From Escherichia phage SKA64: a DNA stretch of 64,000 nt. The notes beneath the pieces are model-generated. The model worked only from the letters and a program-made list of their open reading frames with translations. It searched no databases and was not told the DNA's origin. Position numbers and translations under genes: made by a program. This document shows, piece after piece, positions 5,045 to 40,201 of this stretch (position 1 is its first letter; every line of letters begins with the position of its first letter). The stretch lies in sequence record OM362897.1; one strand, 5' to 3'.

Positions 5045-5864
5045 TCAAACTCAAATTTTTGCAAATAAATTTGATGACCTGGAAACTGCTACTTTTGATA
5101 TCCAAGATTATTCAAAATTGAAATTTGGTAGTAACCAAGCTGCGCGTCGTATGGGTAAAGAATTGGCACTTCAGTTTTTTGCTCAAGTGGCAATGAAACA
5201 TATTGGGGAACAATTTGTTATCATTCCTTCTCCTTACAACCATGTGCATAATGCTGCAACAATGATGACAGATCATTTTATTAATTACTTCAATATGTTG
5301 CAAGCACAATATGATCAAGGTCGTTCAGCAGAACTGGACATTATTCATCGTAAAGTTAGCTATATCAACGATTATGGTTTCTTGGATAAAGCTAGTCGTA
5401 AGAAACTTATTGATGGGGATACATTCTACTGTAACAAAGAATTCTGGGGTGATAAGAAGCTTGTGTTTATTGATGATGTAAATATCACTGGAACTCATGA
5501 AGACAAACTGATTGAGATCCTTGATGAAAATCAAGTTAAAAATGATGTTTACTTCTTGTATTTTGCAAAATACGAAGGTAATCAAGCAGATACCGAAGCT
5601 AAACTGAATTTTAATTATATTAATACACCAGAAGCGTTTGTTAAAATGATTAATGAAGAACGTGATGCACAGTGTCTTGTTCGTCCTATTAAGTATCTTA
5701 TGGGCCAAAATCACGAAGACTTCAAAATCATTCTTAGCCAATTACCACACTACTATGTAGAGCAACTTTTCTTCGGATGTTTGGGAGAAGGTTACAACCG
5801 AATTTCAAAGTATGCCGAAAACTTTGAATTCTTGGATCGTTACACAAAACAACACATTCTGTAA
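5037..5864 (+). CDS. phosphoribosyltransferase-like protein (type I PRTase fold)
   Basis: PRPP-binding signature LVFIDDVNITGTHE (hydrophobic run, DD, TG-T); ATGCGTAA overlap with upstream gene. Confidence 0.55.
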   Translation: MRNQTQIFANKFDDLETATFDIQDYSKLKFGSNQAARRMGKELALQFFAQVAMKHIGEQFVIIPSPYNHVHNAATMMTDHFINYFNMLQAQYDQGRSAELDIIHRKVSYINDYGFLDKASRKKLIDGDTFYCNKEFWGDKKLVFIDDVNITGTHEDKLIEILDENQVKNDVYFLYFAKYEGNQADTEAKLNFNYINTPEAFVKMINEERDAQCLVRPIKYLMGQNHEDFKIILSQLPHYYVEQLFFGCLGEGYNRISKYAENFEFLDRYTKQHIL

Positions 5865-5877
5865 TAAGGAGCTAAAA

Positions 5878-6351
5878 ATGCTTAAAATGAAAACAGGTAA
5901 TCTTATTGATGCCGCTAAAGCAGGTGAAGTAACTGTTATTGCTCATTGTTGCAATTGTATGTGTAATATGGGGGCAGGTATTGCCCCACAAATCAAACGA
6001 GCATTTCCTTACGCATATGCAGCAGACTTAGACACAATGGCTGGTGATCAAAGTAAACTAGGTTGTTTTAGTTTAGGGGTGCCAGACGAACAATCAGATC
6101 CTTTGGTATATAATCTATACGGGCAGTATCGTTATGGATACAATGCTAAAGGTCGTCAGTTGGACTATGATGCACTTTACGATGCACTAATAGCTATGGC
6201 TAACGATTTGCTTCTCCGTGACCAAAAATGTAAGATCGGCTTACCTATGATTGGCGCTGGATATGCTGGAGGTAATTGGGCTATCATCCAAGTGATGATT
6301 GAAGAAACTTTAGTAAAAACAGGTCACGATGTGACTATTTATAAACTTTAA
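5878..6351 (+). CDS. macro domain protein (ADP-ribose binding/processing family)
   Basis: GNLID...VIAHCCNC...MGAGIA...IKRAF and later IGLPMIGAGYAGG match macro-domain motifs; start set at ATG 5878 with AAGGAG RBS rather than track start 5812. Confidence 0.6.
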   Translation: MLKMKTGNLIDAAKAGEVTVIAHCCNCMCNMGAGIAPQIKRAFPYAYAADLDTMAGDQSKLGCFSLGVPDEQSDPLVYNLYGQYRYGYNAKGRQLDYDALYDALIAMANDLLLRDQKCKIGLPMIGAGYAGGNWAIIQVMIEETLVKTGHDVTIYKL

Positions 6352-6363
6352 GAGGAGATTAGT

Positions 6364-6585
6364 ATGGGTGTTTTTGCAGGTATTGTTGCAGTGGTAAGCT
6401 TTTTTGTTATTGCTTTTATGCTTAGTTTGATTCCAGCTTGGTTACTGTTGCTGGCTTACAACTATGTTGCTGAAGTTATGGGTCATGCAGATATCACTGT
6501 CCCAGTAACCTTCTGGACCGTGGTTTGTGTTTCGTTTATTCTGGCTGTATTACGAGGAATCTTTTCCTCTCATTCAACAAAATAA
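6364..6585 (+). CDS. small hydrophobic membrane protein (73 aa)
   Basis: GAGGAG RBS; two predicted transmembrane helices. Confidence 0.55.
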   Translation: MGVFAGIVAVVSFFVIAFMLSLIPAWLLLLAYNYVAEVMGHADITVPVTFWTVVCVSFILAVLRGIFSSHSTK

Positions 6586-6588
6586 GTG

Positions 6589-6616
6589 TTGACATAGTTC
6601 TTAAAAAGAGTAAGAT
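6589..6616 (+). promoter_or_regulatory. sigma70-like promoter (TTGACA-16-TAAGAT) upstream of TerC gene
   Basis: Exact TTGACA -35 in the intergenic gap, acceptable -10 at 16-nt spacing; a 7-bp hairpin (GCGGGGA/TCCCCGC, about 6629-6647) lies in the short leader. Confidence 0.45.
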
Positions 6617-6664
6617 ATATCACATGAAGCGGGGAATAGTTCCCCGCAAAGAGAGGAGAAAAGA

Positions 6665-7639
6665 ATGCAACTTGGTTTCCCCATTATTGATGTAGTTGTT
6701 TTAGTTGGTATTTTAGCATTGTCTATTGGTATCGATTTCTTTGGTCACAAAGAAAATAAAGAAATTTCATTCAAATCCGCAGTTGATTGGTCGATCTTTT
6801 GGATTGGTGTATCATTAGCTTATTATGGTTTTGTATACTTCCAACATGGTGCCGATTTTGCTAACTTGTTTTTAAGTGGATATGTGTTGGAAAAATCTTT
6901 GTCGGTAGATAACTTAGTAGTATTTGTAGCAGTATTCGCAAGTTTTGGTATTAAAAGCACACACTTGCAGCACAAGATTCTACTTTGGGGTATTGCAGGT
7001 GCGATTGTCTTCCGAGGTGTGTTTGTAGCAGTAGGCACTTACTTGTTAAGTTTGGGCTGGTATGTTAATATCTTCTTCGGTGCGGTCATCCTTTTCTGTG
7101 CAGCTAAAATGGTATTTGCTGGAGATAATGACGCAGAAGTTGATTACTCTAAACACTGGGCTACCCGTATTGTTCGTAAACTGTTCCCTGTATCTAATAA
7201 AATGGATGGGGAGAAGTTCTTCACAATCGAAAATGGTGTTCGTGTAGCAACTCCAGCTTTGGTTTGCGTATTCGTGATGGAAATGGTGGATGTAATCTTT
7301 GCAGTAGATTCGGTTCCAGCGGTGATCGCAGTGACACAAGAACCCCTACTTGTATTCTCTTCGATGTTATGTGCAATCTTAGGTCTACGTGCTCTGTTCT
7401 TTGTTCTTAGTGTCGCACTGAAGTATCTGGTTCACTTGGAGAAAGCAGTTATTGTGGTTCTGGTGTTTGTAGGCGTTAAACTGATGTATCACCCGTTTGC
7501 AGAAACATTGCATGAGAAAATGAGTTTCCTGCCAGCACATATTGATCCAACTATTAGTATGTATATCGTGCTTGGTACTTTGGCCCTTGGTGTTATTGCA
7601 AGCTTTATCTTCCCTGAAAAAGAAGAAGCTACTATTTAA
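6665..7639 (+). CDS. TerC-family integral membrane protein
   Basis: 324 aa polytopic membrane protein containing YVLEKSLSVDNLVVF, matching the conserved E-x-SLSVDN signature recalled for the TerC family. Confidence 0.7.
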   Translation: MQLGFPIIDVVVLVGILALSIGIDFFGHKENKEISFKSAVDWSIFWIGVSLAYYGFVYFQHGADFANLFLSGYVLEKSLSVDNLVVFVAVFASFGIKSTHLQHKILLWGIAGAIVFRGVFVAVGTYLLSLGWYVNIFFGAVILFCAAKMVFAGDNDAEVDYSKHWATRIVRKLFPVSNKMDGEKFFTIENGVRVATPALVCVFVMEMVDVIFAVDSVPAVIAVTQEPLLVFSSMLCAILGLRALFFVLSVALKYLVHLEKAVIVVLVFVGVKLMYHPFAETLHEKMSFLPAHIDPTISMYIVLGTLALGVIASFIFPEKEEATI

Positions 7640-7645
7640 TAAATG

Positions 7646-7670
7646 AGCCTCCTTCGGGAGGCTATTTTAT
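7646..7670 (+). terminator. rho-independent terminator
   Basis: Stem AGCCTCC/GGAGGCT with TTCG loop followed by ATTTTAT just after TerC stop. Confidence 0.6.
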
Positions 7671-7681
7671 AGGAGAGACTT

Positions 7682-8032
7682 ATGAGTAATTTTGATGAAA
7701 TTCAAGAACTTGTTTGGGATTTATCTGGTGATGTGGATTACATTTCAGATTATCTTTCAAAAGTTTACCCTGGGGTAAGCGTTATGATTGTGACCAAAGA
7801 TCCAATTAGTTTGCCTCCCAATGTTGTAGCTTGTTGTGGAAGTGGTTCAGGAGAAGTAGAGCCTGTATCTCGTTGGGAATTAACTAAAGCTGTTTCAAAA
7901 CGAAACGGTGAAGTTTTGAATATTGATATTGAGCAAATATGGACTTCTCCAGCAGCCAAATGGAATGATCCAAATGGTTGGGATTTGTTCTTCTGGGATA
8001 ATGAGACTGATGATGAGGTGTTTTTAAAATGA
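7682..8032 (+). CDS. hypothetical protein (116 aa)
   Basis: ORF with RBS; acidic C-terminal half. Confidence 0.55.
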   Translation: MSNFDEIQELVWDLSGDVDYISDYLSKVYPGVSVMIVTKDPISLPPNVVACCGSGSGEVEPVSRWELTKAVSKRNGEVLNIDIEQIWTSPAAKWNDPNGWDLFFWDNETDDEVFLK

Positions 8033-8274
8033 AATACTTGTTGGTTGTGTTTGAAAATATCTGTTTTGCAATAGGGTTGTTTGTTGTAATTTTTGTATTG
8101 ACAAGCGTAATCAACGGCAGTAAAGTGAGTTTATACCGAGATGGAGAGCAACTTTATTGCTTCTCTGGAGATTTCAAACACAGATGTATTAATAGCCAAA
8201 ACGAGGAAAGCAAATATGAAAAAACTAGCCCTGATTTTAATTGGTTGTATCTTTTTAACAGCTTGCGAGGATGA
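8029..8274 (+). CDS. hypothetical small membrane protein (uncertain)
   Basis: ATGA start/stop overlap with upstream gene; hydrophobic N-terminus; overlaps the lipoprotein gene in another frame. Confidence 0.3.
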   Translation: MKYLLVVFENICFAIGLFVVIFVLTSVINGSKVSLYRDGEQLYCFSGDFKHRCINSQNEESKYEKTSPDFNWLYLFNSLRG

Positions 8275-8653
8275 AACAAATCCTGCACAATACCAACAAC
8301 CTCCTCAACAATACGCTCAACAAGGATCTGACGGAGATACAACTATTATCAACAATGGTGGCGGTTCTAGTAGTAGCGGTGTTGGTGAGTTTGCTACAGG
8401 TATGTTGTTAGGGCATATGATGAGTGGCGGTAGTAATCGTAGCAGTGGGGATTATAACGATAACAGAACGATTATTAATAAGCATTATAATACACCTAAA
8501 CCGAAAACTAATTTTTATGGTAAGCCTAAACAAGAGATAAAAACTTATGAAAAGCCGAGACAAACTTTTAAAACAAATAGTAGCTATACAACTCGTAAAT
8601 CTTACAATAGCCCTTTAAGTAAAAAGAGTTCATCTCGTAGCAAGCGACGTTAA
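8216..8653 (+). CDS. putative lipoprotein (Gln/Gly/Ser-rich, basic C-terminus)
   Basis: MKKLALILIGCIFLTAC signal peptide with lipobox LTAC; GAGGAAAG RBS; internal ATG chosen over track start 8141. Confidence 0.6.
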   Translation: MKKLALILIGCIFLTACEDETNPAQYQQPPQQYAQQGSDGDTTIINNGGGSSSSGVGEFATGMLLGHMMSGGSNRSSGDYNDNRTIINKHYNTPKPKTNFYGKPKQEIKTYEKPRQTFKTNSSYTTRKSYNSPLSKKSSSRSKRR

Positions 8654-8667
8654 TAAGGAGAAAAACA

Positions 8668-9261
8668 ATGACAATTTCTATTCGTACTTCCATTACAGGT
8701 GTTAAAAGTTTGCCTAATGCTTTGCAAATCACACGTGCTTTGAGGGATACGTTCTCTGCTGTGGATGAGCATAAGATGCTCGATAATCTCTCAAATTGGC
8801 CCTATTTTCATTATTTTAAAAATGAAGACGACGAGTTTATAGACGCTGTTTCTTACGGTTATGATTTCGGTAAGGAGGTTTCCCCTGAAGAATTTGTAGC
8901 TACGGTGTTCCCAAACGGTTTGCCTACTCGCAGTAAACGTAAAAAAGGACCAAAAAACAAGAAACGTGCTACTAATAAAGCTACCATTTTCTTTACTGAT
9001 GGCACACAATATACGATTAAAGACTTTGAAGAGGTATCTTATACAGCAGGTGGGAGTCTTTCTTTCTACACCATCAAAAAACAAAACTATACGTTCAGCC
9101 ATGTTTCTAACATGATTGAAATGTTAGTAGAAGATATTGAAAGCGTGGCTGTGTTAGGTATGCATAAAAGCTTTTTAATTACAAATATTTCAGATTTCAG
9201 TGCAAGTTTATCTGGCCCTGATTTTGAAGCCACGACCACGCATTTCGCTTTTAAGGTGTAA
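8668..9261 (+). CDS. hypothetical protein (197 aa)
   Basis: ORF with GGAGAAAAA RBS; no motif recognised. Confidence 0.55.
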   Translation: MTISIRTSITGVKSLPNALQITRALRDTFSAVDEHKMLDNLSNWPYFHYFKNEDDEFIDAVSYGYDFGKEVSPEEFVATVFPNGLPTRSKRKKGPKNKKRATNKATIFFTDGTQYTIKDFEEVSYTAGGSLSFYTIKKQNYTFSHVSNMIEMLVEDIESVAVLGMHKSFLITNISDFSASLSGPDFEATTTHFAFKV

Positions 9262-9264
9262 GTT

Positions 9265-9855
9265 ATGCATACCGAGAGAGACTTGCAACTCTTGTGGTGG
9301 GAAGTGATGCAGGAAATAAAAGAAGATTTTCCTGTTTACTACAACATGTTACGTGAAGCAGGATATAAAGCTTGTGTTAGAAACAAAGTGAATAACTCTT
9401 TCGGTTGGTGCAACTACCGAGATAAAATTGTTGTTGTAAATTGGCACTTGCATAAGAACTCCACAAGAGATATGATCGTGGATACAATGAAGCACGAAAT
9501 TGCTCATGCTATTGATGGTTGTATGGGTAAGTTTAGTAGGCACGGTGCTCATTGGCAAAAACTGGCAGCAGAATTAGGGGCTAATCCTAAAGCCACTTCC
9601 AAAGAGCCGTTGAACCACGAATATAAATATGTTCTTGTTCTGGTAGATAGGTTTGCGACAAGATGTGTTAGAGGTTATAATCGTAAACCTAATCGCATGT
9701 ACCCAGGTAAGCAACCTAATATGTGGTTGAAATCAGATAAAGAAGGGACCGAAGGAAAATTATGGTTGTATAAATGGGACGATTGGGTTAAAGTAGCTAA
9801 AGAGTACGGTGTTTCACCATATATAAGAGATGCAGAAGAGGAGAATGAAGAATGA
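9265..9855 (+). CDS. SprT-like zinc metallopeptidase domain protein
   Basis: IVDTMKHEIAHAIDG (HExxH zinc-binding motif in SprT-like context). Confidence 0.55.
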   Translation: MHTERDLQLLWWEVMQEIKEDFPVYYNMLREAGYKACVRNKVNNSFGWCNYRDKIVVVNWHLHKNSTRDMIVDTMKHEIAHAIDGCMGKFSRHGAHWQKLAAELGANPKATSKEPLNHEYKYVLVLVDRFATRCVRGYNRKPNRMYPGKQPNMWLKSDKEGTEGKLWLYKWDDWVKVAKEYGVSPYIRDAEEENEE

Positions 9856-10964
9856 CAAGTCCATTTTTAAAAGCAGCTACTGGTGGTCAGAAGAAGCCTG
9901 AAATGAGCGTATTTGCTGCAACAACAGATGCAAGTAAATCTGTATTCGCTCCAAGCGTGTTAGATGCCAGTCCTGTTTATGCACCAGCGGCACCGCAAGA
10001 AGTTCCAGTTTTGCCTTCTATGACCCGACAAGAGATTGAAGAGATTGGGGCAGAGGCAGGAACAACCTTGCGTTCCTTGAATGCCGAGGTGTTAAAACAT
10101 CAACGTAGTAATCAAGGCGATCAGATGAGTGAACGACTCACAGCTTTGATTAAACAGGCAAAACAACTTGATCCAAACTCTATTAAACAAAGCAAGGGTA
10201 TTACTAAACTCATTAAAAAAGTTATGGGTATGAAAGAAGACCTGTTCGGGGAGTTTGATAATGTTAATAACCGTATTGAAGAGTTGGTAAAGAACCTTCA
10301 AATGGATATTCGCAAAGAAGAAGATTCCTTGGTATATCTTGAAAAGCTACATCAAGCTATTGGACAATATGCTGCAAGTTTGAACCGAGATATGCAGCTT
10401 CTAACAGCAACCTATGAAAAAGAAGAACAAGCTTTGGCTGCTCTTCCAGAAGATGCAGTAGAACAGCGACAAGTGATCCGAGATACTTTGGATCTTCTGG
10501 AGATTCGTATTGCAGATTTAAAAGCATTGCGCCTACTGTGTGTCCAAATGGGACCGCGTGTACAAGGTATGCAAAAAGTTTCTGCAAGCTTAATGCGATC
10601 TGCGCGTAACATAGTAAATAATGTTATTCCTGCTTACTCTGCTAACTTCTCAATGTATATCGAGAGCTTACGTCAAATGAAAGCAGCAGAGACGCAGAAT
10701 AACGTTCTTGATGAATTTAACCTGGCAATTAAACTGGGTAGCGATCTTGCCACACAGAATCAGATCGAAGCAGCAGCACTGGCTAACCGTCAAGTGTTGG
10801 ATATTGAAACTCTGCGTCACGATCAGGAAAACTTGGTTAAGATGCTGGAAGAAACTAACCGCATCAATACGGAAGCCCGTGCTGCTCGTGTTGATTATAT
10901 TAATGAAGTTCAATCTCTGGAAGACGGGATGGTAGCTGCTGTGAAACGAGGGCTTGGTAAATGA
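9852..10964 (+). CDS. TelA/KlaA-like toxic-anion-resistance family protein (tentative)
   Basis: 370 aa, largely alpha-helical/coiled-coil, size and composition consistent with TelA; assignment supported mainly by TerC/TerD context. Confidence 0.4.
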   Translation: MTSPFLKAATGGQKKPEMSVFAATTDASKSVFAPSVLDASPVYAPAAPQEVPVLPSMTRQEIEEIGAEAGTTLRSLNAEVLKHQRSNQGDQMSERLTALIKQAKQLDPNSIKQSKGITKLIKKVMGMKEDLFGEFDNVNNRIEELVKNLQMDIRKEEDSLVYLEKLHQAIGQYAASLNRDMQLLTATYEKEEQALAALPEDAVEQRQVIRDTLDLLEIRIADLKALRLLCVQMGPRVQGMQKVSASLMRSARNIVNNVIPAYSANFSMYIESLRQMKAAETQNNVLDEFNLAIKLGSDLATQNQIEAAALANRQVLDIETLRHDQENLVKMLEETNRINTEARAARVDYINEVQSLEDGMVAAVKRGLGK

Positions 10965-11158
10965 GAATCCGTATCTATATAATTGATGAAGACATTGGTG
11001 TCCGTTATGATGACGAAAAACGATTCGCACCGATGGGAGGCATATATCCCCCAAGTGTTCTAGCAGTTTGTCGTGATTGTTATATTTATGAAGGTTGTCG
11101 TAACTTCCGTAAATTCGAACTCCTTGCAGATATTGACTTCAATGAGGAGGAGGAGTAA
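10961..11158 (+). CDS. hypothetical small protein with Cys pairs
   Basis: 65 aa, CRDCYIYEGC; ATGA overlap with upstream gene. Confidence 0.45.
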   Translation: MRIRIYIIDEDIGVRYDDEKRFAPMGGIYPPSVLAVCRDCYIYEGCRNFRKFELLADIDFNEEEE

Positions 11159-11331
11159 TGAAAATATTACGAGTGAATATTGAAACTGCTTGGTGTGGAT
11201 GCAATGAGGTTGTGGATATCGAAATTGAAGATGATATGTCTCAAGAGGATATAGAAGATCTTGCACACGAAACCTTTCAGGATTATTGTAATTACGGGTT
11301 CCATATTTTAGAGGAGGAAGAAGATGTATAA
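11158..11331 (+). CDS. hypothetical small acidic protein (57 aa, below track cutoff)
   Basis: ATG overlapping upstream TAA, GAGGAGGAGG RBS; found by manual translation. Confidence 0.35.
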   Translation: MKILRVNIETAWCGCNEVVDIEIEDDMSQEDIEDLAHETFQDYCNYGFHILEEEEDV

Positions 11332-11722
11332 TCCAACAGGTATTCTTTTAAAACTTACAGTAACAGACCCTACTCTTTTCATCAAGTTAGCAAGTGGTGA
11401 AGTTTATGAAGTAATGAAAGATGATGACGGTTGGTGTTATCTTTGTGGCTACTTCCTCTGTGATGCAGAAGAGTTAGAATCCATTGTAACTAAAGGTTTT
11501 TATGAAGAACCAGGGTTCCGTGTGGAAACTACGCAGAAACCTGATACCATTACGTTGACTCGACAGGAACTGATCACAATCATTGAAGATGCTTTTATTG
11601 ATGGCTGGAATACACAAGATAATGACTGGGGTGGACCCGAAGCTTTTCTGGAACATCATAAAGCTTATGGAGAATTTTGTGAAACCACTGTAGCTCTTGA
11701 TAATCTGAAGGAGGGTTTGTAA
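11324..11722 (+). CDS. hypothetical protein (132 aa)
   Basis: ORF with GAGGAGGAAG RBS. Confidence 0.55.
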   Translation: MYNPTGILLKLTVTDPTLFIKLASGEVYEVMKDDDGWCYLCGYFLCDAEELESIVTKGFYEEPGFRVETTQKPDTITLTRQELITIIEDAFIDGWNTQDNDWGGPEAFLEHHKAYGEFCETTVALDNLKEGL

Positions 11723-12285
11723 TGGGTTGTTTTAGCTTTTTGTGCAAAGAATCGGGCAAAGCTGCCCTTTCTACTTCTTTCGACGGATCACCTTGCTACC
11801 TCTTTCTTTTGAAGGACGGTGTTGTTATTGAAGAGATGTATGGCAACTATGATAGTTATGGTTGTGTTTTCTCTGGAAAGGAGGATGAAAATGGTGTTCG
11901 TGAACGATTTGAATGGGCTATGGATTGGAGTAAGGTTTGTGATTTGATGCATTCCTCAAATCCAAGAGACGGTATCGCTATGGTGCTGGAAGAGTACTTT
12001 ACAGGTGAAATCCCTACAGAACAATCTGACGGAGATCCTAACCAAGGTTGGGGTGATGGTGAAGAAGATCCAGATTGTTTTTTCAGCACAGAAAAGAATA
12101 AGTTTAAACGTGTTGACAACCCTTATCACAAAGTGCATAATACTCTCATTGAAACAGAAGATGACAAGATGGAAATTGAAGAAGATGATCCTCTTGTAAC
12201 ACTTCCTATAAGTGAGTTACAAAAGATCACTAAGGAAGCTTACGATTTGGGCTTCAAAATTGGTAGAGGAGGTATGCGTGTTTAG
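11722..12285 (+). CDS. hypothetical acidic protein (187 aa)
   Basis: ORF with GGAGGG RBS; Asp/Glu-rich. Confidence 0.55.
   Translation: MGCFSFLCKESGKAALSTSFDGSPCYLFLLKDGVVIEEMYGNYDSYGCVFSGKEDENGVRERFEWAMDWSKVCDLMHSSNPRDGIAMVLEEYFTGEIPTEQSDGDPNQGWGDGEEDPDCFFSTEKNKFKRVDNPYHKVHNTLIETEDDKMEIEEDDPLVTLPISELQKITKEAYDLGFKIGRGGMRV
12113..12141 (+). promoter_or_regulatory. possible sigma70-like promoter (TTGACA-17-CATAAT), intragenic
   Basis: Consensus hexamers at proper spacing about 140 nt upstream of the paralog-A/vWA gene pair, but inside a CDS. Confidence 0.3.
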
Positions 12286-12556
12286 ATTCAATATTCAAGA
12301 AGAAAAAAGTCAAGATTTACCTATTGCTTTCGAAGATCTTGACGTAGGGGCAACATTCATGTATTATGATGCCTATGAAGACGCAGGGTTGGATACGTAC
12401 CGTAACTTGGTGTTCATTAAAAATTCCACAAACAGTGCGATTTGTATTAATGGATCACTAGCACAACGAGGCTATACTCATTGCATCCCACCAGATACAA
12501 ATATGGTGGAAGTAGATTTAGAAGTTACCAATATTACACTTAAGAAGGAGAAATAA
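12278..12556 (+). CDS. small conserved protein, paralog A (pairs with 13578..13847)
   Basis: GTG start with AGAGGAGG RBS; shares DLDVGxTF...GLD...ITLK pattern with paralog B. Confidence 0.5.
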   Translation: MFRFNIQEEKSQDLPIAFEDLDVGATFMYYDAYEDAGLDTYRNLVFIKNSTNSAICINGSLAQRGYTHCIPPDTNMVEVDLEVTNITLKKEK

Positions 12557-12557
12557 T

Positions 12558-13352
12558 ATGTCCGAGAAAATCAGCCTGAAAAAACGTCAAGAAAACCTTG
12601 CTTTCTCTCTGAAAAAGAATAAGAACCTGAATGAAGGTAAGATTGTTCTTCGTGTAGCATGTGCTCTAGATATTTCTGGTAGTATGCATGGTCTATATTC
12701 TAGTGGGGTAGTGAGTGATTTTGTAGGTAAACTGCTTCCTTTTGGTATGTTGTTCGACGATAATCAACAAATTGATATGTGGGCCTTCAATACGAGTTCC
12801 CAAGAGCTTACTCCAGCAACAGCAGACGTTTACGACGACTATGTTGGTAAATGTATGCGTAATGTTCGTATCGGAGGTGGAACAAATTACGCCCCTGTAA
12901 TGGCAGATATCTACGATGAGTATTTTGGCACTGTTACCAAATATATTACCACTAAACAAGTGGTACAAGAGGAGGCTCCAAAGAAAGGCTTCTTTAATCG
13001 TCTGCTTGGTAAAACTGAAACAGTGTCTGTAGAGCGTGAAAAAGTTGTAGCTGTATCAGAACCAGGTGCTGACGTTACCCCTGGTGTTGTATTCTTCCAG
13101 ACGGATGGTGAGAATGGTGATCCTAGTGCTGTTCGTCGTCTTATCGAAGAGAATAAGAATAAACCTATTTATTGGTTCATGGTTGGCGTTGGTAATGAGA
13201 AGTTTGGCTTCCTGAAAGAACTGGCAAATGCTTATGATAATGTTGGTTTTATTGGCATTAAAGATTTAGACTTGACAGATTCAGAGCTTTATGACAAACT
13301 CTTATCTGAAGAGTTCGGAGAGTGGGTTGTTAAAGTAGGTGCTAAAAAATGA
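12558..13352 (+). CDS. TerF-like protein: TerD-type N-terminus fused to von Willebrand factor A domain
   Basis: N-terminal KISLKK segment like TerD; MIDAS motif LDISGSM plus GGGTNY and FFQTDGENGD. Confidence 0.6.
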   Translation: MSEKISLKKRQENLAFSLKKNKNLNEGKIVLRVACALDISGSMHGLYSSGVVSDFVGKLLPFGMLFDDNQQIDMWAFNTSSQELTPATADVYDDYVGKCMRNVRIGGGTNYAPVMADIYDEYFGTVTKYITTKQVVQEEAPKKGFFNRLLGKTETVSVEREKVVAVSEPGADVTPGVVFFQTDGENGDPSAVRRLIEENKNKPIYWFMVGVGNEKFGFLKELANAYDNVGFIGIKDLDLTDSELYDKLLSEEFGEWVVKVGAKK

Positions 13353-13597
13353 TCGACGAGCTTGCCTCTCAAGTCATAGAAAATTATTGGCGCGAGAGAG
13401 AAGCTTTCATTATGCGCAGTCTCAAAGAGTATTTCATTGGGACTGTGCGAATGGAAGATATTGTAAGTAGAGTGGAGATTCATGTATGGCCCGATTATGA
13501 AGAATGGGTTGACAAAGAAAATGAAAATGCTATAATTCTTCGTATATACAAACCGGAGATAACATTAGGAGGAAGAAGTGTTAAACTTCGAAATTGA
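13349..13597 (+). CDS. hypothetical protein (82 aa)
   Basis: ATGA overlap with upstream gene; contains a promoter-like sequence near its end. Confidence 0.45.
   Translation: MIDELASQVIENYWREREAFIMRSLKEYFIGTVRMEDIVSRVEIHVWPDYEEWVDKENENAIILRIYKPEITLGGRSVKLRN
13509..13536 (+). promoter_or_regulatory. possible sigma70-like promoter (TTGACA-16-TATAAT), intragenic
   Basis: Perfect -35 and -10 hexamers upstream of paralog B and TerD, inside a CDS. Confidence 0.35.
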
Positions 13598-13847
13598 TGA
13601 GCAAAAAGTAAATAAACGATGCCTTACCATTAAAGATTTGGATGTAGGAGATACTTTCGTCTATGAAAATGCATTTGACGAAAATGGTTTAGACCTTAGT
13701 GAAATCATTGTTTATTTAAAAGTAGATGATGGGGAAAATGATTATTCTGCTGTAGAACTAAACCATCATGCACAATTAGTATCAATCCAAAGCACATCTA
13801 AGCTTTTGGAAGTAGAATTGACTGTAACTGGTATTACACTTAAATAA
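13578..13847 (+). CDS. small conserved protein, paralog B (pairs with 12278..12556)
   Basis: GTG start with AGGAGG RBS; shared motif pattern with paralog A. Confidence 0.5.
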   Translation: MLNFEIDEQKVNKRCLTIKDLDVGDTFVYENAFDENGLDLSEIIVYLKVDDGENDYSAVELNHHAQLVSIQSTSKLLEVELTVTGITLK

Positions 13848-13862
13848 TAGAGGAGACAAAAG

Positions 13863-14465
13863 ATGACTGATAAAATTTCCCTGAAAAAAGGCTCTAGCGA
13901 AAAAATTTCCCTGAAGAAGGTTGCTCCGGCTCTGAAAGAACTGCGCCTGGAATTCTCTTGGAAGTCTGATTCTAAACTGGATCTGGATGTAAGTGCACTG
14001 GTTTGTCGTCACAATGCCGCTGGCAATCCTGAAATGCTGTCTGCACGTCATCTTGTTTGCTATGCTAACAAGTTTGATCCTGAACGTTCTACCTTCGCTG
14101 GTGACGATGTTCGTGATGGCACTGGCAGCATGGAGCAGATCGATATTACTCTGGCTAAAATCTCTCCTGATGCACAAGAGATTGCCTTTGTTCTGACCAT
14201 TGATGATGATACAGGTCTGAAACGTTTTGGTCATGCTTCTGAAGGTATGCTTAAAATCTTCGACTCCGAGCGCAATGTGGAAATTCTGGATTTTGACTTC
14301 CTGGCTCCTGAAGTAGCTGGCAACACAATCTGCCACGTGGCTTCCTTGGTTCGTGAAGATGGGGAATGGAAGCTGAAAGCATATGGTGTAGGCAAAGCTG
14401 GTCTGGATATTTGTGATGTGGTGATGGCCTTCGGTGGTAAAAAAGAATGGTATGAATGTCCATAA
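13863..14465 (+). CDS. TerD-domain stress protein
   Basis: 200 aa; N-terminal KISLKKG...LDLDVSALV and GDDVRDGTG...IDDD pattern typical of TerD; codon usage biased to CTG/CGT/GGC. Confidence 0.75.
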   Translation: MTDKISLKKGSSEKISLKKVAPALKELRLEFSWKSDSKLDLDVSALVCRHNAAGNPEMLSARHLVCYANKFDPERSTFAGDDVRDGTGSMEQIDITLAKISPDAQEIAFVLTIDDDTGLKRFGHASEGMLKIFDSERNVEILDFDFLAPEVAGNTICHVASLVREDGEWKLKAYGVGKAGLDICDVVMAFGGKKEWYECP

Positions 14466-14564: not shown

Positions 14565-15086
14565 TTGCTGATAAAAAACTTTGTAACAGTTGCGTTACTA
14601 TCCTTAACTGCTTTTACATTTACACCTGTTGTGGCGAAAGCCGAAGCTGCAAACGTAAAAACCGCTAAAGTAGTTCACAAATGTACAAAGCAATATAATG
14701 ATAAAATTCTATTAGCTTGTGCAATTTACGCAGAAGGTCGCGGTCTGGGTAAAAAAGGAATGAATGCCGTTGGGAATGTGGTAATCAACAGAAGAAATGA
14801 TACCTACTTCCCTAACACAGTCAGAGGGGTCTTGTTCCAGAAAGGGCAATTCTCATATGCGAAAACTTTTAACGTAACAGAGAAAGATAAGTGGCAGGAA
14901 GCAAAAGCAATAGCGGAGCGTTTACTTTATTTAGAGAAACATTTTCCTGAATTGCGGTCTGTTTTAGATGTTACTAAAGGTGCTCTATACTTCAAGAAAC
15001 GGAATATAAGGACACACTGGGAACGTGATATGCGTCTTGTTTATCGAGATAAAGTGCATGGTTTCTATCTACCAAAGGGGAGTTAA
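14565..15086 (+). CDS. secreted cell-wall hydrolase, SleB-like domain (candidate endolysin)
   Basis: TTG start with AAGGAGG RBS; Sec-type signal peptide ending AKA-EA; AIYAEGRG...VGNVVINR...QKGQFSYA matches SleB-type hydrolase motifs. Confidence 0.65.
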   Translation: MLIKNFVTVALLSLTAFTFTPVVAKAEAANVKTAKVVHKCTKQYNDKILLACAIYAEGRGLGKKGMNAVGNVVINRRNDTYFPNTVRGVLFQKGQFSYAKTFNVTEKDKWQEAKAIAERLLYLEKHFPELRSVLDVTKGALYFKKRNIRTHWERDMRLVYRDKVHGFYLPKGS

Positions 15087-15372: not shown

Positions 15373-15602
15373 TGGGAGAAGTCATTGAAGTCAATTTTCG
15401 CACTAAACAGAAAGTGCAAAAATATGTCGTTATTAAAAACATTTGCGTTGTCTGCTTCAATACAGTAATATACGACTCACGACGCGGAGAAAACGAAAAT
15501 GAACCTTACATTGAAATTTCTAAGAACAAAGGTCAATGTATTTGTAAGAACTGTGCAGTAGCTATTAAGGAGGTTGTAAATGAAAACGCTTGGGACCAAT
15601 GA
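15372..15602 (+). CDS. hypothetical protein with two Cys pairs (possible zinc ribbon)
   Basis: CVVCF...CICKNC; start overlaps upstream stop. Confidence 0.45.
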   Translation: MGEVIEVNFRTKQKVQKYVVIKNICVVCFNTVIYDSRRGENENEPYIEISKNKGQCICKNCAVAIKEVVNENAWDQ

Positions 15603-15771
15603 AACTGGCGAGATCTCTCTTCAAGAAGTGACAAACGACAAACTGATTAAACTACGGGACGTAGCCCGTGACCATCTCCAAGAATCTTTTAAAGAATATA
15701 TGGAAGCACGAGATCGTGTGATTCAGATCCAACAAGAAATGATTAAACGTGGGATTGTAGCTGACAGTTAA
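15580..15771 (+). CDS. hypothetical small protein
   Basis: AAGGAGG RBS. Confidence 0.45.
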   Translation: MKTLGTNETGEISLQEVTNDKLIKLRDVARDHLQESFKEYMEARDRVIQIQQEMIKRGIVADS

Positions 15772-15787
15772 TATAACGGAGGGGAGA

Positions 15788-16351
15788 ATGATTTATTATA
15801 TTACTCCCTATCTGACAGGAAATATCGGCAAGGCTATCAATGAAGCCATTGCCGTTCTTCCAGATGATAGTTGGGTGTGTTTAAGAGATACCGATACAAT
15901 GTTCCTCCTACCTGATCAACCATCTATGCTTGAAGAGCTTGTTATGTCAAACCCGCCTTTTGATGTAATAGGTGCAACTTGTAACAGGTTAGGTAGTGGT
16001 TATCAGCTTTTCTCTAACCAAATTAACGATGATCCCGATATTCTAAACCATATAGAATATGCTAAGATTGCAAGAGAATATCATAAAGTGAGTGTTGAAG
16101 AAGTTCCTTTCGGAACACCTCTGGCAGGTTTCTTTTTGCTTTTTAGAAAATCATTGTGGAATGAAATTCCTTTCGAAGAAAAATCTATCCAATTCGACTT
16201 AATTTTCTCTCGCACTTTACATGAAAAAGGAAAGAGGTTAGGATTGATGCGGGGAATGTATCTGTTTCACATTTACAGATTAGGTCAAACAAATCCTCAA
16301 CGGTCTATACATCATTTATTACACTGTCATGATCACAGTAAAACTATTTAG
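15788..16351 (+). CDS. putative nucleotide-sugar transferase-like protein (weak)
   Basis: LRDTDTMF DxD-like segment; first gene of glycosyltransferase-like run. Confidence 0.3.
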   Translation: MIYYITPYLTGNIGKAINEAIAVLPDDSWVCLRDTDTMFLLPDQPSMLEELVMSNPPFDVIGATCNRLGSGYQLFSNQINDDPDILNHIEYAKIAREYHKVSVEEVPFGTPLAGFFLLFRKSLWNEIPFEEKSIQFDLIFSRTLHEKGKRLGLMRGMYLFHIYRLGQTNPQRSIHHLLHCHDHSKTI

Positions 16352-16359
16352 GAGAGAAA

Positions 16360-17043
16360 ATGGAAAATATTAAAATCGGAGTGGGTGTTATCACTGTAGG
16401 TGTCCGTCCACTTAAAGACTACCTTGTAACAGATCCACGTGCAGATTTTCGAGTATTCAACGATCCAGATCGTAAAGGTGTAGCTTATGCCAGGAATGAA
16501 CTTATGCACCAGTTTTATGAAGAAGGTTATGATTATTGGTTTATTTTTGACGATGATTGCTACCCAGTCATGGAGGGATGGGAAACATACTTTGTAGATC
16601 AAGCTGTCTCTGGAGGATGGGATTTCTTTGGTATGCCGGAGTATTTCAAAGATAAAGTTGTTGGAAGCAAAGGAGAAGTTATTCTCTGGGAACTTGCAAT
16701 GTGTCAATTTGCAATGTATTCTCGTGCCGTTGTTGAGAAGATGGGTTATTTCCGTCCTTACACTCACGGTTATGGTTTTGAAGATGCTGAATGGGGACAC
16801 CGTTTGCAAGCTGCTGGTTTGAATCATGGTATTCAGGCAACACCTTGTCCACTTCGTATCATGGCTTATATCCACCCAGACGATGTTTTTGGAAACAATC
16901 CTATGCCTTTTGCTAACCTGACAAAAGAAGAGAAAGAGGCTGCTATTGGGATTAACTGGGAAGAATATAAAGCATCTTTAGAGGATATTAAAAATGGGAA
17001 AATCCGAATTTCCTATGAGGAGGCACTAGCACATGTCAAATAA
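16360..17043 (+). CDS. glycosyltransferase family 2-like (GT-A fold)
   Basis: KGVAYARNEL and FIFDDDCYP (DxD) motifs. Confidence 0.5.
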   Translation: MENIKIGVGVITVGVRPLKDYLVTDPRADFRVFNDPDRKGVAYARNELMHQFYEEGYDYWFIFDDDCYPVMEGWETYFVDQAVSGGWDFFGMPEYFKDKVVGSKGEVILWELAMCQFAMYSRAVVEKMGYFRPYTHGYGFEDAEWGHRLQAAGLNHGIQATPCPLRIMAYIHPDDVFGNNPMPFANLTKEEKEAAIGINWEEYKASLEDIKNGKIRISYEEALAHVK

Positions 17044-17980
17044 AAAATGGTCTAAACTAAAAATTGATGCAAAACCTCACAGCGGTTGTGACTATCATCG
17101 TATTGTTATACCATTTAACAACAATAATATTCAACCTAAGAAAGATGTTGTTGTGTTTAACCGTATCCACTCTAAAGGTGCAGAATACGTTTTATCTTTG
17201 AAACGTCAAGGTGTTAAGGTTGTTGTAGACTTAGATGATTTTTACCAACTTAATCCAGAACATTATTTAGCAAGTCTATACGAGTCAAACACTCATGCTA
17301 TTGTAGCTATGGTTAAGCTTGCTGATGTGGTTATTGTGACTACGGAATATTTGGCATATAAGATCCGTCACTTAAATAGGAATGTTGTTGTGATCCGAAA
17401 TGCACTTCCTTTTGATAGCGGACAATTCACTTTGTCAAATGATCGTTCATCCGGTACCCCTGTTGTATGGGCTGGCGGTGCTAGTCACGAACCAGACTTA
17501 CGACTAGTCTCTAATACTTTCGATGATGAACTTCTTACTATTGCGGGATATGAAGCATCACAAAGCATCACGGGACAAGAGTGGATTAAGATTCGCAGAA
17601 ATTTACCAAATGCCAAATATAAAGCCGCTGTAAAAGATTTAGATAATTACATGAGTGTTTACGAAAGTCATGCTATTGCTATAGCTCCTTTGGTAGATAA
17701 TGATTTTAATAATTGTAAAAGTAATCTCAAAATCCTGGAAGCTGGAGCAAAAGGTATTCCAATTGTTTGTTCTAAGGTATTACCTTATTTTAACCCTGTA
17801 GATGCTCGCGCTGTTGCTTACGCAGAGAATAAAGCAGAATGGCATTACGAAATTGTTAAGCTTCTTCGCAATCCAAACTATCGGGAAGATCGTGGCTTGT
17901 TCTTGGCTGAACATGTTCGAACACATTATAATCTGGCAGATGCAAACGAGTTGCGACGCCAGGTTATTGAAAGTTTGTAG
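17033..17980 (+). CDS. glycosyltransferase-like protein, paralog 1 (GT-B-like)
   Basis: NCKSNLKILEAGAKGIPIVCS resembles GT-B donor-binding helix; paralogous to next gene. Confidence 0.4.
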   Translation: MSNKKWSKLKIDAKPHSGCDYHRIVIPFNNNNIQPKKDVVVFNRIHSKGAEYVLSLKRQGVKVVVDLDDFYQLNPEHYLASLYESNTHAIVAMVKLADVVIVTTEYLAYKIRHLNRNVVVIRNALPFDSGQFTLSNDRSSGTPVVWAGGASHEPDLRLVSNTFDDELLTIAGYEASQSITGQEWIKIRRNLPNAKYKAAVKDLDNYMSVYESHAIAIAPLVDNDFNNCKSNLKILEAGAKGIPIVCSKVLPYFNPVDARAVAYAENKAEWHYEIVKLLRNPNYREDRGLFLAEHVRTHYNLADANELRRQVIESL

Positions 17981-17987
17981 GTGAAGT

Positions 17988-18932
17988 ATGGGACAAATAA
18001 TTCTTGACAATCGTAACGGAATCAATTATAGTGTCTGCGATTTCCATAGGGTAGTGCTGCCTTACTCAAGGCAGTTCTCTTCACAACCTAAACACAACGT
18101 TTTCGTTTTTAACGGAGTGCCAACAAAAGGTAAAGAGGGCTTTTTAGCCCTTAAAAACCTAGGCTTTAAAATGGTTATGGATTTGGATGACTCTTTAGTT
18201 ATTCCAAAAGGACACATGTTAGAAGGTATTTTTGAATCAGGTATTCGTGAACATTTAAAATGGTTTTTAGAGCACAGCGATCTTGTTACAACTACGACAC
18301 CTGCTTTGCAAGTTGAACTTTCACAATACAATGATAATGTGCACATAATCCCTAATGGTCTTCCTTACGATGAAGGTCAATTTGTGTTGACCCGTGATCG
18401 CTACTCCAAAACTCCATTAGTCTGGGCGGGAAGTGAAACACATAAACAAGATTTGGCTATCTTGCCCGATTTTGGTAAAGATCTTACGATATGTGGTTTT
18501 CGTAGGGATTCTGAAGTTTTAAGTAGTCGTGAATGGTCTGTGATCAGAGAAAATGTAGCACCAACTTGTGTTTATGAAGGTGTAAGACCATATGCCAACT
18601 ACATGGAATCTTACGATGGTCATCAAATCAGTCTTGCGCCATTGATTGATAACGTGTTTAATAATGCAAAAAGCAATCTTAAAATTCTTGAGGCAGGTGC
18701 TAAGGGTTTACCTTTGATCTGTTCTCCTCGTGAGAATTATCATACACAAGAGTTTAAAGATTTGTTATTCTTTGCTGAAACGCCTTCCGAGTGGAAAGAT
18801 ATTACGGAATACTTATTAAGTGCTCCCGATGTTTGCATGGAGAAAGGATTAGCATTAGCTAAGTATGTCAGGACTCATTATCACATTGATGTGTTGAATG
18901 AGCGTCGTAGACTTTTATTTGAGGAGCTATAA
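17988..18932 (+). CDS. glycosyltransferase-like protein, paralog 2 (GT-B-like)
   Basis: NAKSNLKILEAGAKGLPLICS; conserved N-terminus C-D-F/Y-H-R-V/I with paralog 1. Confidence 0.4.
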   Translation: MGQIILDNRNGINYSVCDFHRVVLPYSRQFSSQPKHNVFVFNGVPTKGKEGFLALKNLGFKMVMDLDDSLVIPKGHMLEGIFESGIREHLKWFLEHSDLVTTTTPALQVELSQYNDNVHIIPNGLPYDEGQFVLTRDRYSKTPLVWAGSETHKQDLAILPDFGKDLTICGFRRDSEVLSSREWSVIRENVAPTCVYEGVRPYANYMESYDGHQISLAPLIDNVFNNAKSNLKILEAGAKGLPLICSPRENYHTQEFKDLLFFAETPSEWKDITEYLLSAPDVCMEKGLALAKYVRTHYHIDVLNERRRLLFEEL

Positions 18933-19210
18933 TGATTAACACTTTTGATTTTGAATACACCACTCGTAACGGGAAAGCTTTAGTCGTGGAGGTGGATTAC
19001 TATTATGAAGAGCCTAACCCGCTTTCTCGTGAAAGTGATTGGGATTACCACGGAGGGCTTTTAATTGACGGTATTCGTTTTTATGAAGGCTCTACAGAAG
19101 TTTTTGAAAAAGATTTAAATGTGACTGTAGCAGAAATTGCTTTCCAATTTAGAAAGCATATGGAAGAACTAGAAGCAGAATATATGATGGAGACTAACGA
19201 ACCATTTTAA
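18932..19210 (+). CDS. hypothetical protein (92 aa)
   Basis: ATGA overlap. Confidence 0.5.
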   Translation: MINTFDFEYTTRNGKALVVEVDYYYEEPNPLSRESDWDYHGGLLIDGIRFYEGSTEVFEKDLNVTVAEIAFQFRKHMEELEAEYMMETNEPF

Positions 19211-19222
19211 CAGGAGAACAAA

Positions 19223-21001
19223 GTGTCGCACATTATAACTAAATATGGATTTGATGTTGATCTTAGCAAGGAAGGGCATACAGGTTGTCCGCGCTGCATG
19301 AAAAATGGCAAGGATCGCTCTCGTAATAACCTGATGGTTTATGGATTAGATTCTAATGGAGAGCATAAAGGTGCTAAGTGCTTTGCGTGTGAATACACTA
19401 TTCCTAGCGTAGAATGGTTACGAGAAAATGGTGAAGTTTTAGAAGAAGAGGAGGAGATTGTGGGTTCGGAATTTAATAAACAGATTCATCGTAAAATTGT
19501 TCAAGAAACATCAACCAACCCACGTGGTTATCGAGGCATTAAAGAAAAAGTTTCATCTTTCTATGGTGTTCGTTATGAATACCGTCAGGAAGGGGATCAG
19601 ATGGTAGTAGAAAGTTGTTTATATCCAACTACTATCGGTAAAGAGTTGGTTGGTTTTAAGCGTCGTATTCATCCTAAAGATTTCAGTAAACCTATTGGTC
19701 AAGTAGGTAAAGATGTAGATCTTTTTGGACAAATTCGTTTTGCAGACCGTTCTCATACTGTGGTAATTACAGGTGGTGAACACGATGCTCTGGCAGCTTA
19801 TCAAATGCTGTCTGAAAACTTGGACAACAAATATGAACTTCCAGCAGTAGTTAGTGGCACAACTGGTGAAACCAGTATGTATAAACAAGTTCAGGCACAA
19901 TATCCTTTCTTTGAAAAATTTAAGAAGATTATTGTTTGCATGGATAATGACAAAGCAGGTAATGAGGCATTTGAAAATATTGTTAAGGTGCTGCCTCGTA
20001 ACAAAGTCTACCGTATGCAGATGGATCTTAAGGATGCCAATCAGTATCTGGAAGAAGGTCGTGCAAAAGATTTCGTAAAAGCTTTTTGGAGTGCTCGTCT
20101 ATACACCCCAGCAGGTGTTTATGCTTCTAATGTCTTGTATGAAGCTGCATTAGAATGCTTGGAATCCAAGATGATTACCTTGCCTCCTTTTATGCGTGTT
20201 GCTGCAAATATGCTGGGTGGTGGTTTAGTAGAGGAAGAGATTACAGTCATCCTGGCAAAGACCAGTATCGGTAAAACTTTGATGGTGAATGAGATCACCA
20301 AACATATTATTGTTGCACACCCAGAACATACCCTAGGTATTCTGTCCTTGGAAGCAACTTATAAGAAATATTCTCGTAACCTGTTGTCCTCGTTCCTGCA
20401 TATTCCTCTACACAGGAAAACACCGGAAGAGAAATTTCAAATCTTGGAAGAGAATAAAGAAAAAATCTTAGATTTTTACGAAAGAGAAGATGGATCGCCA
20501 CGTTTTTATGTGTGTGATGATCGTGGAGCAGATGTGGAGTCTATCAAAGAAAAAGTTTTGGAGATGATCATCTATTTTGGAGTAACAATTCTTGTTATCG
20601 ACCCTTATTCTGATTTGCTTTCTGGTATGGATGTTCAAGCCCAGGAAGAGTTAGCAACATGGTTGAAGCGCATCATGAAAGAGTATGCTATAACTATTAT
20701 CGTCATCTCACACGTTAAGAAATCGGCTAATGGTGGCAATGAACACTTAACAGAGGACGATGCAATGGGTAGTAGTTTCTTGGCTAAAGGTGCTGGTATT
20801 ACCTTGGCTTTGGAACGAGATAAAGCCGCTGAAGATCCTGTAGAACGTAATACGACTCATTGCTTTATCCTAAAAAACCGTGAGTTCTCGGAAACTGGTC
20901 CGGCAGGGCAGTTTTACTATGACATTAGAACTGCAACTCTGCATGACAAAGAGCAGTATTTCAACAATCCTGCTAATTTGCCTACGGATAGCAACTATTA
21001 A
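19223..21001 (+). CDS. bifunctional DNA primase/helicase (T7 gp4-like)
   Basis: GTG start with AGGAG RBS; N-terminal zinc finger CPRC...CFAC, TOPRIM-like VVITGGEHD...CMDNDKAG, helicase Walker A KTSIGKT and ILVIDPYSD. Confidence 0.75.
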   Translation: MSHIITKYGFDVDLSKEGHTGCPRCMKNGKDRSRNNLMVYGLDSNGEHKGAKCFACEYTIPSVEWLRENGEVLEEEEEIVGSEFNKQIHRKIVQETSTNPRGYRGIKEKVSSFYGVRYEYRQEGDQMVVESCLYPTTIGKELVGFKRRIHPKDFSKPIGQVGKDVDLFGQIRFADRSHTVVITGGEHDALAAYQMLSENLDNKYELPAVVSGTTGETSMYKQVQAQYPFFEKFKKIIVCMDNDKAGNEAFENIVKVLPRNKVYRMQMDLKDANQYLEEGRAKDFVKAFWSARLYTPAGVYASNVLYEAALECLESKMITLPPFMRVAANMLGGGLVEEEITVILAKTSIGKTLMVNEITKHIIVAHPEHTLGILSLEATYKKYSRNLLSSFLHIPLHRKTPEEKFQILEENKEKILDFYEREDGSPRFYVCDDRGADVESIKEKVLEMIIYFGVTILVIDPYSDLLSGMDVQAQEELATWLKRIMKEYAITIIVISHVKKSANGGNEHLTEDDAMGSSFLAKGAGITLALERDKAAEDPVERNTTHCFILKNREFSETGPAGQFYYDIRTATLHDKEQYFNNPANLPTDSNY

Positions 21002-21534: not shown

Positions 21535-22329
21535 TTGAGCAAGTTGAATACACTTGATCAATATTACACTAACCCCGCTTATGCGGGGTTCTTATGTGAT
21601 AAGATCAAAGAAATTTTTGGAGAGGAAGCTAACTACGTAGAACCATCTGCGGGAGAAGGAGCTTTCTCTTCTTGTTTTAAAAACATAACTTCTTTTGATA
21701 TTGACCCTAAGTTTGAAGATTGTATTGAGGCAGATTTTTTAGCTCAATCTGTTGAGTCTGTTGGCAGTGTAACTGCTTTTGTCGGTAATCCTCCGTTTGG
21801 AAAAAATGCCAGTCTTGCCATTAAGTTCTTTAACCATTGTGCTGAAATGTTGGATAACGAAGGTGGTATTTGTTTTATCTTGCCTCGCACATTTCAAAAA
21901 ATCTTTTTTGCACACAAACTAAATCCCCACATGCATCTTCTTTACGAAGAAGAATGTCCAAAAGGATCTTTTATTCTTCATGGAGAACCTTGGGATGTTC
22001 CTTGTGTATTCCAGATATGGATTAAACGCAACGAGAAGCGTTCTCCCGTTGTTTTAGGAGAGAATCGACTGTTCGTATTAGGTAACAGTAAAGACTACGA
22101 TATAGCCGTTAGGAGAGCGGGAGCAAGTGCAGGTAAAGTGTTATCAGAAGAGGATTCTTTATCTGAAGCATCTACCTATTTTTTAAAAACCTTGACTTCT
22201 GATCTTAAAACGCGTATCATTGAGGCTTACCCGTTACTTAAAGCTGAAGCTAGTAAAACTGCGGGAGTAAGAAGTTTAAGTTTAAAAGAACTTCAGTGGG
22301 TTCTGGAGAACATTAGAAAGGAGGAATAG
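21535..22329 (+). CDS. orphan DNA N6-adenine methyltransferase
   Basis: TTG start with AAGGAGG RBS; motif order DQYYTNP, VEPSAGEGAF (SAM binding), GNPPFG (catalytic NPPF); no adjacent restriction enzyme. Confidence 0.7.
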   Translation: MSKLNTLDQYYTNPAYAGFLCDKIKEIFGEEANYVEPSAGEGAFSSCFKNITSFDIDPKFEDCIEADFLAQSVESVGSVTAFVGNPPFGKNASLAIKFFNHCAEMLDNEGGICFILPRTFQKIFFAHKLNPHMHLLYEEECPKGSFILHGEPWDVPCVFQIWIKRNEKRSPVVLGENRLFVLGNSKDYDIAVRRAGASAGKVLSEEDSLSEASTYFLKTLTSDLKTRIIEAYPLLKAEASKTAGVRSLSLKELQWVLENIRKEE

Positions 22330-40154: not shown

Positions 40155-40201
40155 AAAAACTCCAGTTTAAAGCGGGTCGTCCTTGACCCAAAGTTGTTAC
40201 C

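Follow-up and report, generated by a model that had tools for sequence, protein, structure and literature searches.

Four tandem glycosyltransferase genes of a Phapecoctavirus include a gene pair shared among phages of Gram-negative bacteria and may act on virion proteins

Results

Four glycosyltransferase genes in the replication block

We analyzed a stretch of 64,000 nucleotides (nt) from Escherichia phage SKA64 (OM362897.1; hereafter the window), in which four tandem open reading frames (ORFs) on the plus strand encode putative glycosyltransferases (GTs). The genes are numbered here by position, independently of the GT family numbers: GT1 (15788–16351, 187 amino acids (aa)), GT2 (16360–17043, 227 aa), GT3 (17033–17980, 315 aa) and GT4 (17988–18932, 314 aa). 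The window belongs to the genus Phapecoctavirus (subfamily Stephanstirmvirinae) and is 99.4% identical to phage tuntematon, where position 48175 corresponds to window position 15500. Region 15500–19300 matched 11 phage genomes over its full length with 99.0–99.6% identity, and 64 genomes in all, including Escherichia phages tuntematon and phAPEC8, were more than 95% identical to it.

The original prediction placed four tandem GT genes upstream of replication genes, and coordinates (identical for all four ORFs), folds, motifs and PHROG or RefSeq labels all agree with it. The genes are tightly packed: 8 nt separate GT1 from GT2, GT2 and GT3 overlap by 11 nt, and 7 nt lie between GT3 and GT4; each is preceded by a Shine-Dalgarno-like sequence. 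A scan for promoters and terminators around the cluster gave nothing above chance and no convincing internal element, so that no conclusion on expression timing is drawn. All four proteins are predicted to be soluble, lacking any hydrophobic segment of the transmembrane type (highest 19-residue Kyte-Doolittle mean 1.65), and GT1, GT2 and GT4 are acidic. That the four genes encode sugar-transferring enzymes is already known at the level of annotation: RefSeq versions of related genomes label all of them “glycosyltransferase”, and the BASEL annotation of the orthologues in phi92-like phages names two “putative glycosyltransferase” and two “putative disaccharide synthase”.

Two GT-A-type enzymes and two paralogous GT-B-type enzymes

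The predicted structure of GT1 is a minimal GT-A fold consisting of one Rossmann-like alpha/beta/alpha nucleotide-sugar-binding domain, and its DxD metal/nucleotide-sugar motif (D34-T-D36) was invariant in 24 sequences. Structural neighbours of GT1 include the wall-teichoic-acid rhamnosyltransferase RmlT and TarP/TarS; in Pfam, GT1 matched neither Glycos_transf_2 nor Glyco_transf_7C. GT2 was assigned by profile and matches phrog_2456 “glycosyltransferase” (E 1.2e-78). The DDD motif noticed earlier (D64-D65-D66) proved invariant in 17 sequences, as did Y138, G139, E141 and D142 within YGFED (138–142). While the Pfam scores of GT2 itself lie under the gathering thresholds (Glycos_transf_2, 13.3 bits, cut-off 23.3; Glyco_transf_7C, 13.6 bits, cut-off 23), a profile search retrieved 527 cluster representatives at E ≤ 1e-10, and remote family members pass them (P0126, 43 bits for Glyco_transf_7C; P0219, 40.6 bits for Glycos_transf_2). 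For this reason we place GT2, judging by profile membership and at superfamily level only, in the GT2/GT7-like GT-A group. Comparison of the GT1 and GT2 families by hhalign detected no relationship (probability 0.2%), so the two GT-A proteins are not recent paralogues. Sequence searches of PDB chains with GT2, GT4 and the GT2 profile returned chance-level matches only, and none of the four GTs matched NCBIfam.

GT3 and GT4 are paralogues (41% identity, E 1e-77), as had been proposed along with their GT-B-like character. Both contain the motif KSNLKILEAGAKG; as no DNA repeat lies beneath it, the motif is maintained by selection at the protein level. GT4 is predicted to adopt a GT-B fold like that of family GT4, with two Rossmann-like domains and an inter-domain cleft, and the same class is assigned to GT3, which matches phrog_7162 (E 1.2e-148). 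Pfam scores are low: GT4 reaches PF13524 marginally (25.2 bits, cut-off 25), and GT3 stays under the cut-offs of Glyco_trans_1_4 and Glyco_trans_1_2 (22.8 and 20.4 bits versus 27 and 25). The EX7E signature is incomplete, with only the second glutamate retained (nearly invariant E235); eight residues before it, GT4 has alanine and GT3 cysteine, and K228 and K232 are invariant instead. Structural neighbours of GT4 include enzymes with lipid-linked or wall-polymer acceptors (PglA, WlaC, PimA, TarM, WaaG, WaaB). When GT4 was compared by Foldseek with models of viral protein structures, the matches were for the most part uncharacterised “group 1” GTs that did not hint at an acceptor.

In smaller phages with a single GT-B gene, the product is closer to GT3 than to GT4 (51% versus 39% identity in a Serratia prophage; 40% versus 35% in locus L007). 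These identities mark GT3 as the ancestral copy and GT4 as a lineage-specific duplicate, found as the second copy in clusters of the Stephanstirmvirinae type.

Several database sequences depart from this two-copy pattern. Four entries in the GT3/GT4 alignment are chimeras with a GT3-like N-terminal and a GT4-like C-terminal part, the switch lying at or next to KSNLKILEAGAKG in P0046 and P0052 and further upstream in P0044 and P0045; they could reflect natural recombination between the paralogues or assembly artefacts. Justusliebigvirus record OZ035770.1 (H79) holds a single GT3/GT4 copy with 60% identity. Distant relatives of the GT3/GT4 domain also occur on contigs of gammaproteobacterial metagenome-assembled genomes (MAGs; L025–L029), at the C-terminus of proteins of 900–1700 aa in which the GT-B domain is fused to Glycos_transf_2 and other group-1 GT domains, resembling polysaccharide-polymerising enzymes.

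GT2 and GT3 as a portable pair

Next, the distribution of the genes was followed with hidden Markov models (HMMs) built from three family alignments (A1, GT1; A3, GT2; A2, GT3/GT4) and run on the retrieved loci. A prophage of Serratia sp. M24T3 carries GT1-GT2-GT3 in the same order (41%, 34% and 51% identity), situated between lysis genes and an HNH/TerS/TerL/capsid block. Mu-like prophages of four Pseudomonas species have GT2-GT3 directly upstream of TerL-portal-MuF-protease-major capsid protein (MCP), lambdoid phages have the pair flanked by the Q antiterminator region and the holin/lysozyme genes, and in L007 it lies between the large terminase gene (TerL) and the portal gene. The homologous module adjoins structural genes in Mu-like, HK97-like, lambdoid, P22-like and L055-type phages; in the window the cluster does not.

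Among 27 loci sampled from IMG/VR, 12 showed the order of the window, GT1-GT2-GT3-GT4-orf92-primase/helicase, down to 54% identity, and in 11 of these PolA follows within the retrieved stretch. One further locus has an arrangement of the L034 type. Wherever the pair was detected together with TerL or TerS (plus portal), it lay 0.6–4.1 kb upstream of TerL/TerS (7/7 loci). These comparisons of gene order and identity suggest that GT2 and GT3 are the ancestral core and form a portable two-gene phage module, of which GT1 is a frequent third member.

In the Pseudomonas Mu-like prophages (L009–L012), a gene for a protein with a phage Ig-like domain stands directly upstream of GT2-GT3 (in L010 at 8645–9271, 208 aa). 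Its product may be an acceptor or a decoration protein.

A dTDP-rhamnose operon in the same phages

Outside the window, the near-identical tuntematon genome carries an rmlB-A-C-D operon at 121282–124560, whose products all score above the NCBIfam equivalog cut-offs (RmlB 431 bits, cut-off 365; RmlA 464, 361; RmlC 225, 156; RmlD 237, 224). RmlD was found in 155 phage records and GT4 in 140, with 106 Escherichia phage records in each and the same Klebsiella, “Campylobacter” and Justusliebigvirus sets. In a second lineage of large myoviruses (L034, L047), a gene resembling dTDP-glucose-4,6-dehydratase lies between GT1 and GT2. Because of the operon, the nearly matching distribution of RmlD and GT4 and this dehydratase-like gene, dTDP-rhamnose or a related dTDP-sugar is a likely donor.

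Boundary of the cluster and neighbouring genes

GT4 overlaps the following gene, orf92 (18932–19210, plus strand), by an ATGA, pointing to translational coupling. The encoded acidic protein of 92 aa (isoelectric point 4.2) has an ESDWDY motif, belongs to phrog_4240 (unknown function) and marks the boundary of the cluster; a primase/helicase gene follows at 19223–21001, and the GT genes lie in the replication block. Homologues of orf92 with an ESDWDY motif also precede the primase/helicase in L005 and L034, an arrangement conserved in three lineages of large myoviruses, and no homologue was present beside the GT pair in small phages. We considered orf92 as a carrier or acceptor and rejected it, since its occurrence follows that of the primase/helicase rather than that of the GT pair; it probably lies outside the glycosylation module.

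Elsewhere in the window, the early/replication block includes a plus-strand gene (14565–15086) for a SleB-type cell-wall hydrolase (PF07486, E 2e-17) whose N-terminal segment is hydrophobic; the lysozyme and spanin genes that are annotated in the related genome lie at a great distance from it. The tail-fibre/tailspike locus (40000–42500, genes on the minus strand) has a GC content of 0.45–0.50 versus ~0.38 elsewhere, which suggests a horizontally acquired receptor-binding module. Furthermore, near-identical genomes have been deposited as Campylobacter, Acinetobacter, Klebsiella (ZCKP1) and Pseudomonas phages; these host assignments are probably mistaken or stem from contamination by coliphages.

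Discussion

Virion proteins as a tentative acceptor

Our best single guess, and a tentative one, is that the GTs act on virion proteins and that the glycan probably contains rhamnose. Four soluble cytoplasmic enzymes, two of the GT-A and two of the GT4-like GT-B type, would build a short glycan sugar by sugar, with dTDP-L-rhamnose from the phage's own rmlBACD probably serving as at least one donor. Glycosylation of virion proteins would take place in the cytoplasm, ahead of particle assembly or in its course, as happens in some mycobacteriophages. What points in this direction is that at least five independent phage lineages have the pair in late operons beside packaging and head genes, which suggests action while the particle is built. 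Somewhat more doubtful is the broader proposal that GT2 and GT3 are a portable virion-glycosylation module of Gram-negative phages, which the Stephanstirmvirinae expanded to four enzymes with their own dTDP-rhamnose.

Several observations weigh against virion proteins. Full-text literature searches found no report of glycosylated virion proteins in any Stephanstirmvirinae phage, and the searches likewise returned no experimental study of these GT genes. In SKA64 itself, the cluster sits among replication genes rather than by structural ones, and a scan of the structural proteins of the window made no Ser/Thr-rich acceptor tails evident. The rml operon is linked to the GTs by co-occurrence, and in the small phages no rml genes were seen in the examined flanks of the pair. 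Cargo genes (morons) of temperate phages, too, typically occupy such late-operon sites. Finally, an acceptor conserved in the host would account more readily for a module that moves among phages whose virion proteins are unrelated.

Alternative acceptors

The original prediction leaned towards sugar hypermodification of DNA, a suggestion also made by Olsen et al. 2020, in which the GTs would place rhamnose or other sugars on the bases of phage DNA as an anti-restriction measure. A speculation on rhamnosyl-DNA (PMC7552041) was the sole such mention returned by our literature searches. We consider this reading very unlikely; the acceptor is most likely not DNA for the following reasons. Known glycosylation of pyrimidines begins with 5-hydroxymethylcytosine (5-hmC), 5-hydroxymethyluracil (5-hmU) or 5-hydroxycytosine (5-hoC) made by ThyA homologues (PMC13326640). 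The earlier observation that no hydroxymethylase is visible in the window was borne out and extends to the near-identical tuntematon genome: tblastn with approximate ThyA and gp42 query sequences gave nothing below E 0.5 in either. ThyX is the only thymidylate-synthase-type enzyme in the tuntematon annotation, and a Pfam scan of ten candidate ORFs detected no TET/JBP domain in these ten. Phi92-like BASEL phages, which carry the orthologous four-gene cluster, are described as exceptionally susceptible to restriction-modification (RM) systems “despite a putative dTDP glycosylation machinery” (PMC8594841), and they are sensitive to Druantia III and ARMADA II, both of which are thought by the authors to recognise unmodified DNA (PMC13463889). 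In compact temperate phages the core pair stands beside head genes, and its Pfam- or PHROG-labelled neighbours include neither a ThyA-type nor any other nucleotide-metabolism gene. In addition, three of the four GTs are acidic, and the lone family-level hint of DNA, a match of GT2 to TAGT (PF20691), is sub-threshold (19.5 bits, cut-off 27.5) and covers 37 residues around the DxD motif. It is extremely improbable that the pair glycosylates DNA through a reaction that dispenses with hydroxymethyl- or hydroxy-pyrimidine precursors and leaves the restriction systems tested to date able to act. Among the three options that had been offered (DNA, virion and host surface structures), DNA is therefore the least supported; the enzyme assignments and the decision to leave the substrate open have held up. 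As a separate observation on DNA modification, a gene at 21535–22329 (plus strand) that encodes an NPPF motif bears the label DNA N6-adenine methyltransferase in relatives, with no Pfam match at E ≤ 1e-3; the related genome has several more methyltransferase genes.

The main rival is a glycan of the host envelope: on the cytoplasmic side, the GTs would modify lipid-linked or lipid A-core intermediates of the lipopolysaccharide (LPS) core, O-antigen, enterobacterial common antigen (ECA)/NGR or capsule. Infected or lysogenic cells would then show altered receptors, leading to less superinfection or less loss of progeny on debris, and surface glycans are indeed the receptors of these phages (PMC8594841; PMC11990801). 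An acceptor derived from the host explains better than virion proteins how the module works in unrelated Escherichia, Serratia and Pseudomonas phages. It also accords with the many top structural neighbours of GT4 that act on lipid-linked or wall-polymer acceptors, with RmlT and TarP/TarS as neighbours of GT1 and with the fusion of the GT-B domain to GT2-family domains in MAG proteins, which is typical of polysaccharide synthesis. Yet none of the four GTs has a membrane segment, none of the annotated or Pfam-labelled genes next to the module was a flippase or a GtrA/B-like partner, and there is no obvious acceptor common to Escherichia, Serratia and Pseudomonas. Classical seroconversion genes, moreover, adjoin att/int and not the late operon. 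On balance, we rate an envelope target as somewhat unlikely. Lower still, and clearly improbable, ranks a soluble product, either a disaccharide or glycoside of a metabolite or a modified non-structural protein of host or phage, for example one disarmed in defence or signalling. A single disaccharide would need fewer than three or four different GTs, no candidate small-molecule pathway co-travels with the pair, and the module of small phages occurs without Ter-type genes. Such genes are present just upstream of the cluster in the window (4388–14465, plus strand), where a phage-borne Ter-type (“tellurite resistance”-associated) module comprises a HAD-like hydrolase (weak match), ComF-like PRTase_3, a Macro domain, TerC, SprT-like, TelA, vWA-TerF-like and TerD proteins.

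Implications

Overall, this study confirms the existing annotation and arrives at a sharper, testable hypothesis. New are the definition of GT2 and GT3 as a mobile pair, the consistent terminase-side position of this pair in small phages, a confirmation of GT1 by its predicted structure and the arguments against DNA hypermodification. Our findings suggest that a GT cluster beside replication genes, even together with a sugar-nucleotide operon, should not automatically be read as DNA hypermodification. Few coliphages are isolated and put forward for therapy as often as those of the Phapecoctavirus and phi92-like groups. Should the particles of these phages carry phage-made glycans, immune recognition, stability and adsorption would be affected, these broad-host-range therapeutic phages would be glycan-coated, and virion glycosylation would extend from mycobacteriophages to phages of Gram-negative bacteria. 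If a host envelope glycan is the target instead, a lytic phage would be changing the receptor landscape on which it depends, something seldom encountered.

Comparison with known systems

The capsid glycosylation of chloroviruses and giant viruses relies on virus-encoded GTs together with sugar-nucleotide synthesis, including that of rhamnose, and yields demonstrated N-linked capsid glycans in viruses of eukaryotes. The cluster described here resembles it in combining several cytoplasmic GTs with its own pathway for an activated sugar, independent of the host glycan machinery. The enzymes, however, are unrelated beyond fold class, and virion proteins are here a tentative acceptor. GtrABC-type prophage seroconversion, with a membrane GT, a flippase and a bactoprenol-linked carrier, is not matched: the four GTs have no transmembrane segment and no such labelled neighbours.

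Dedicated DNA-modifying systems, namely the alpha- and beta-glucosyltransferases of T4, the arabinosyl-5hoC systems of RB69, DLP3 and HY126 and TET-associated GTs, differ in that no ThyA-type or TET partner was found here. Phages of the sister genus with the same cluster are restriction-sensitive, and the likeness to T4-type DNA GTs is no closer than that to any GT4-type enzyme. Among the retaining GT-B enzymes of family GT4 (PglA, PimA, WaaG, BshA, TarM, sucrose-phosphate synthase), GT3 and GT4 stand out by their shorter length of about 315 aa, by the replacement of the first EX7E glutamate by alanine or cysteine, by Pfam scores at or below threshold and by at most 15% identity to any solved structure.

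A parallel is offered by mycobacteriophages, in which virion glycosylation has reportedly been described for Che8, Corndog and Myrna (Freeman et al. 2023, Cell Host Microbe 31:1216; cited in PMC12582341 and PMC11256854). That case likewise involves a small set of soluble phage GTs in phages without DNA-hypermodification genes, and the small-phage relatives of the present module similarly adjoin head and packaging genes. As differences, the hosts here are Gram-negative, no Ser/Thr-rich acceptor tails were seen in the structural proteins of the window, and this phage lineage has a dTDP-rhamnose pathway of its own.

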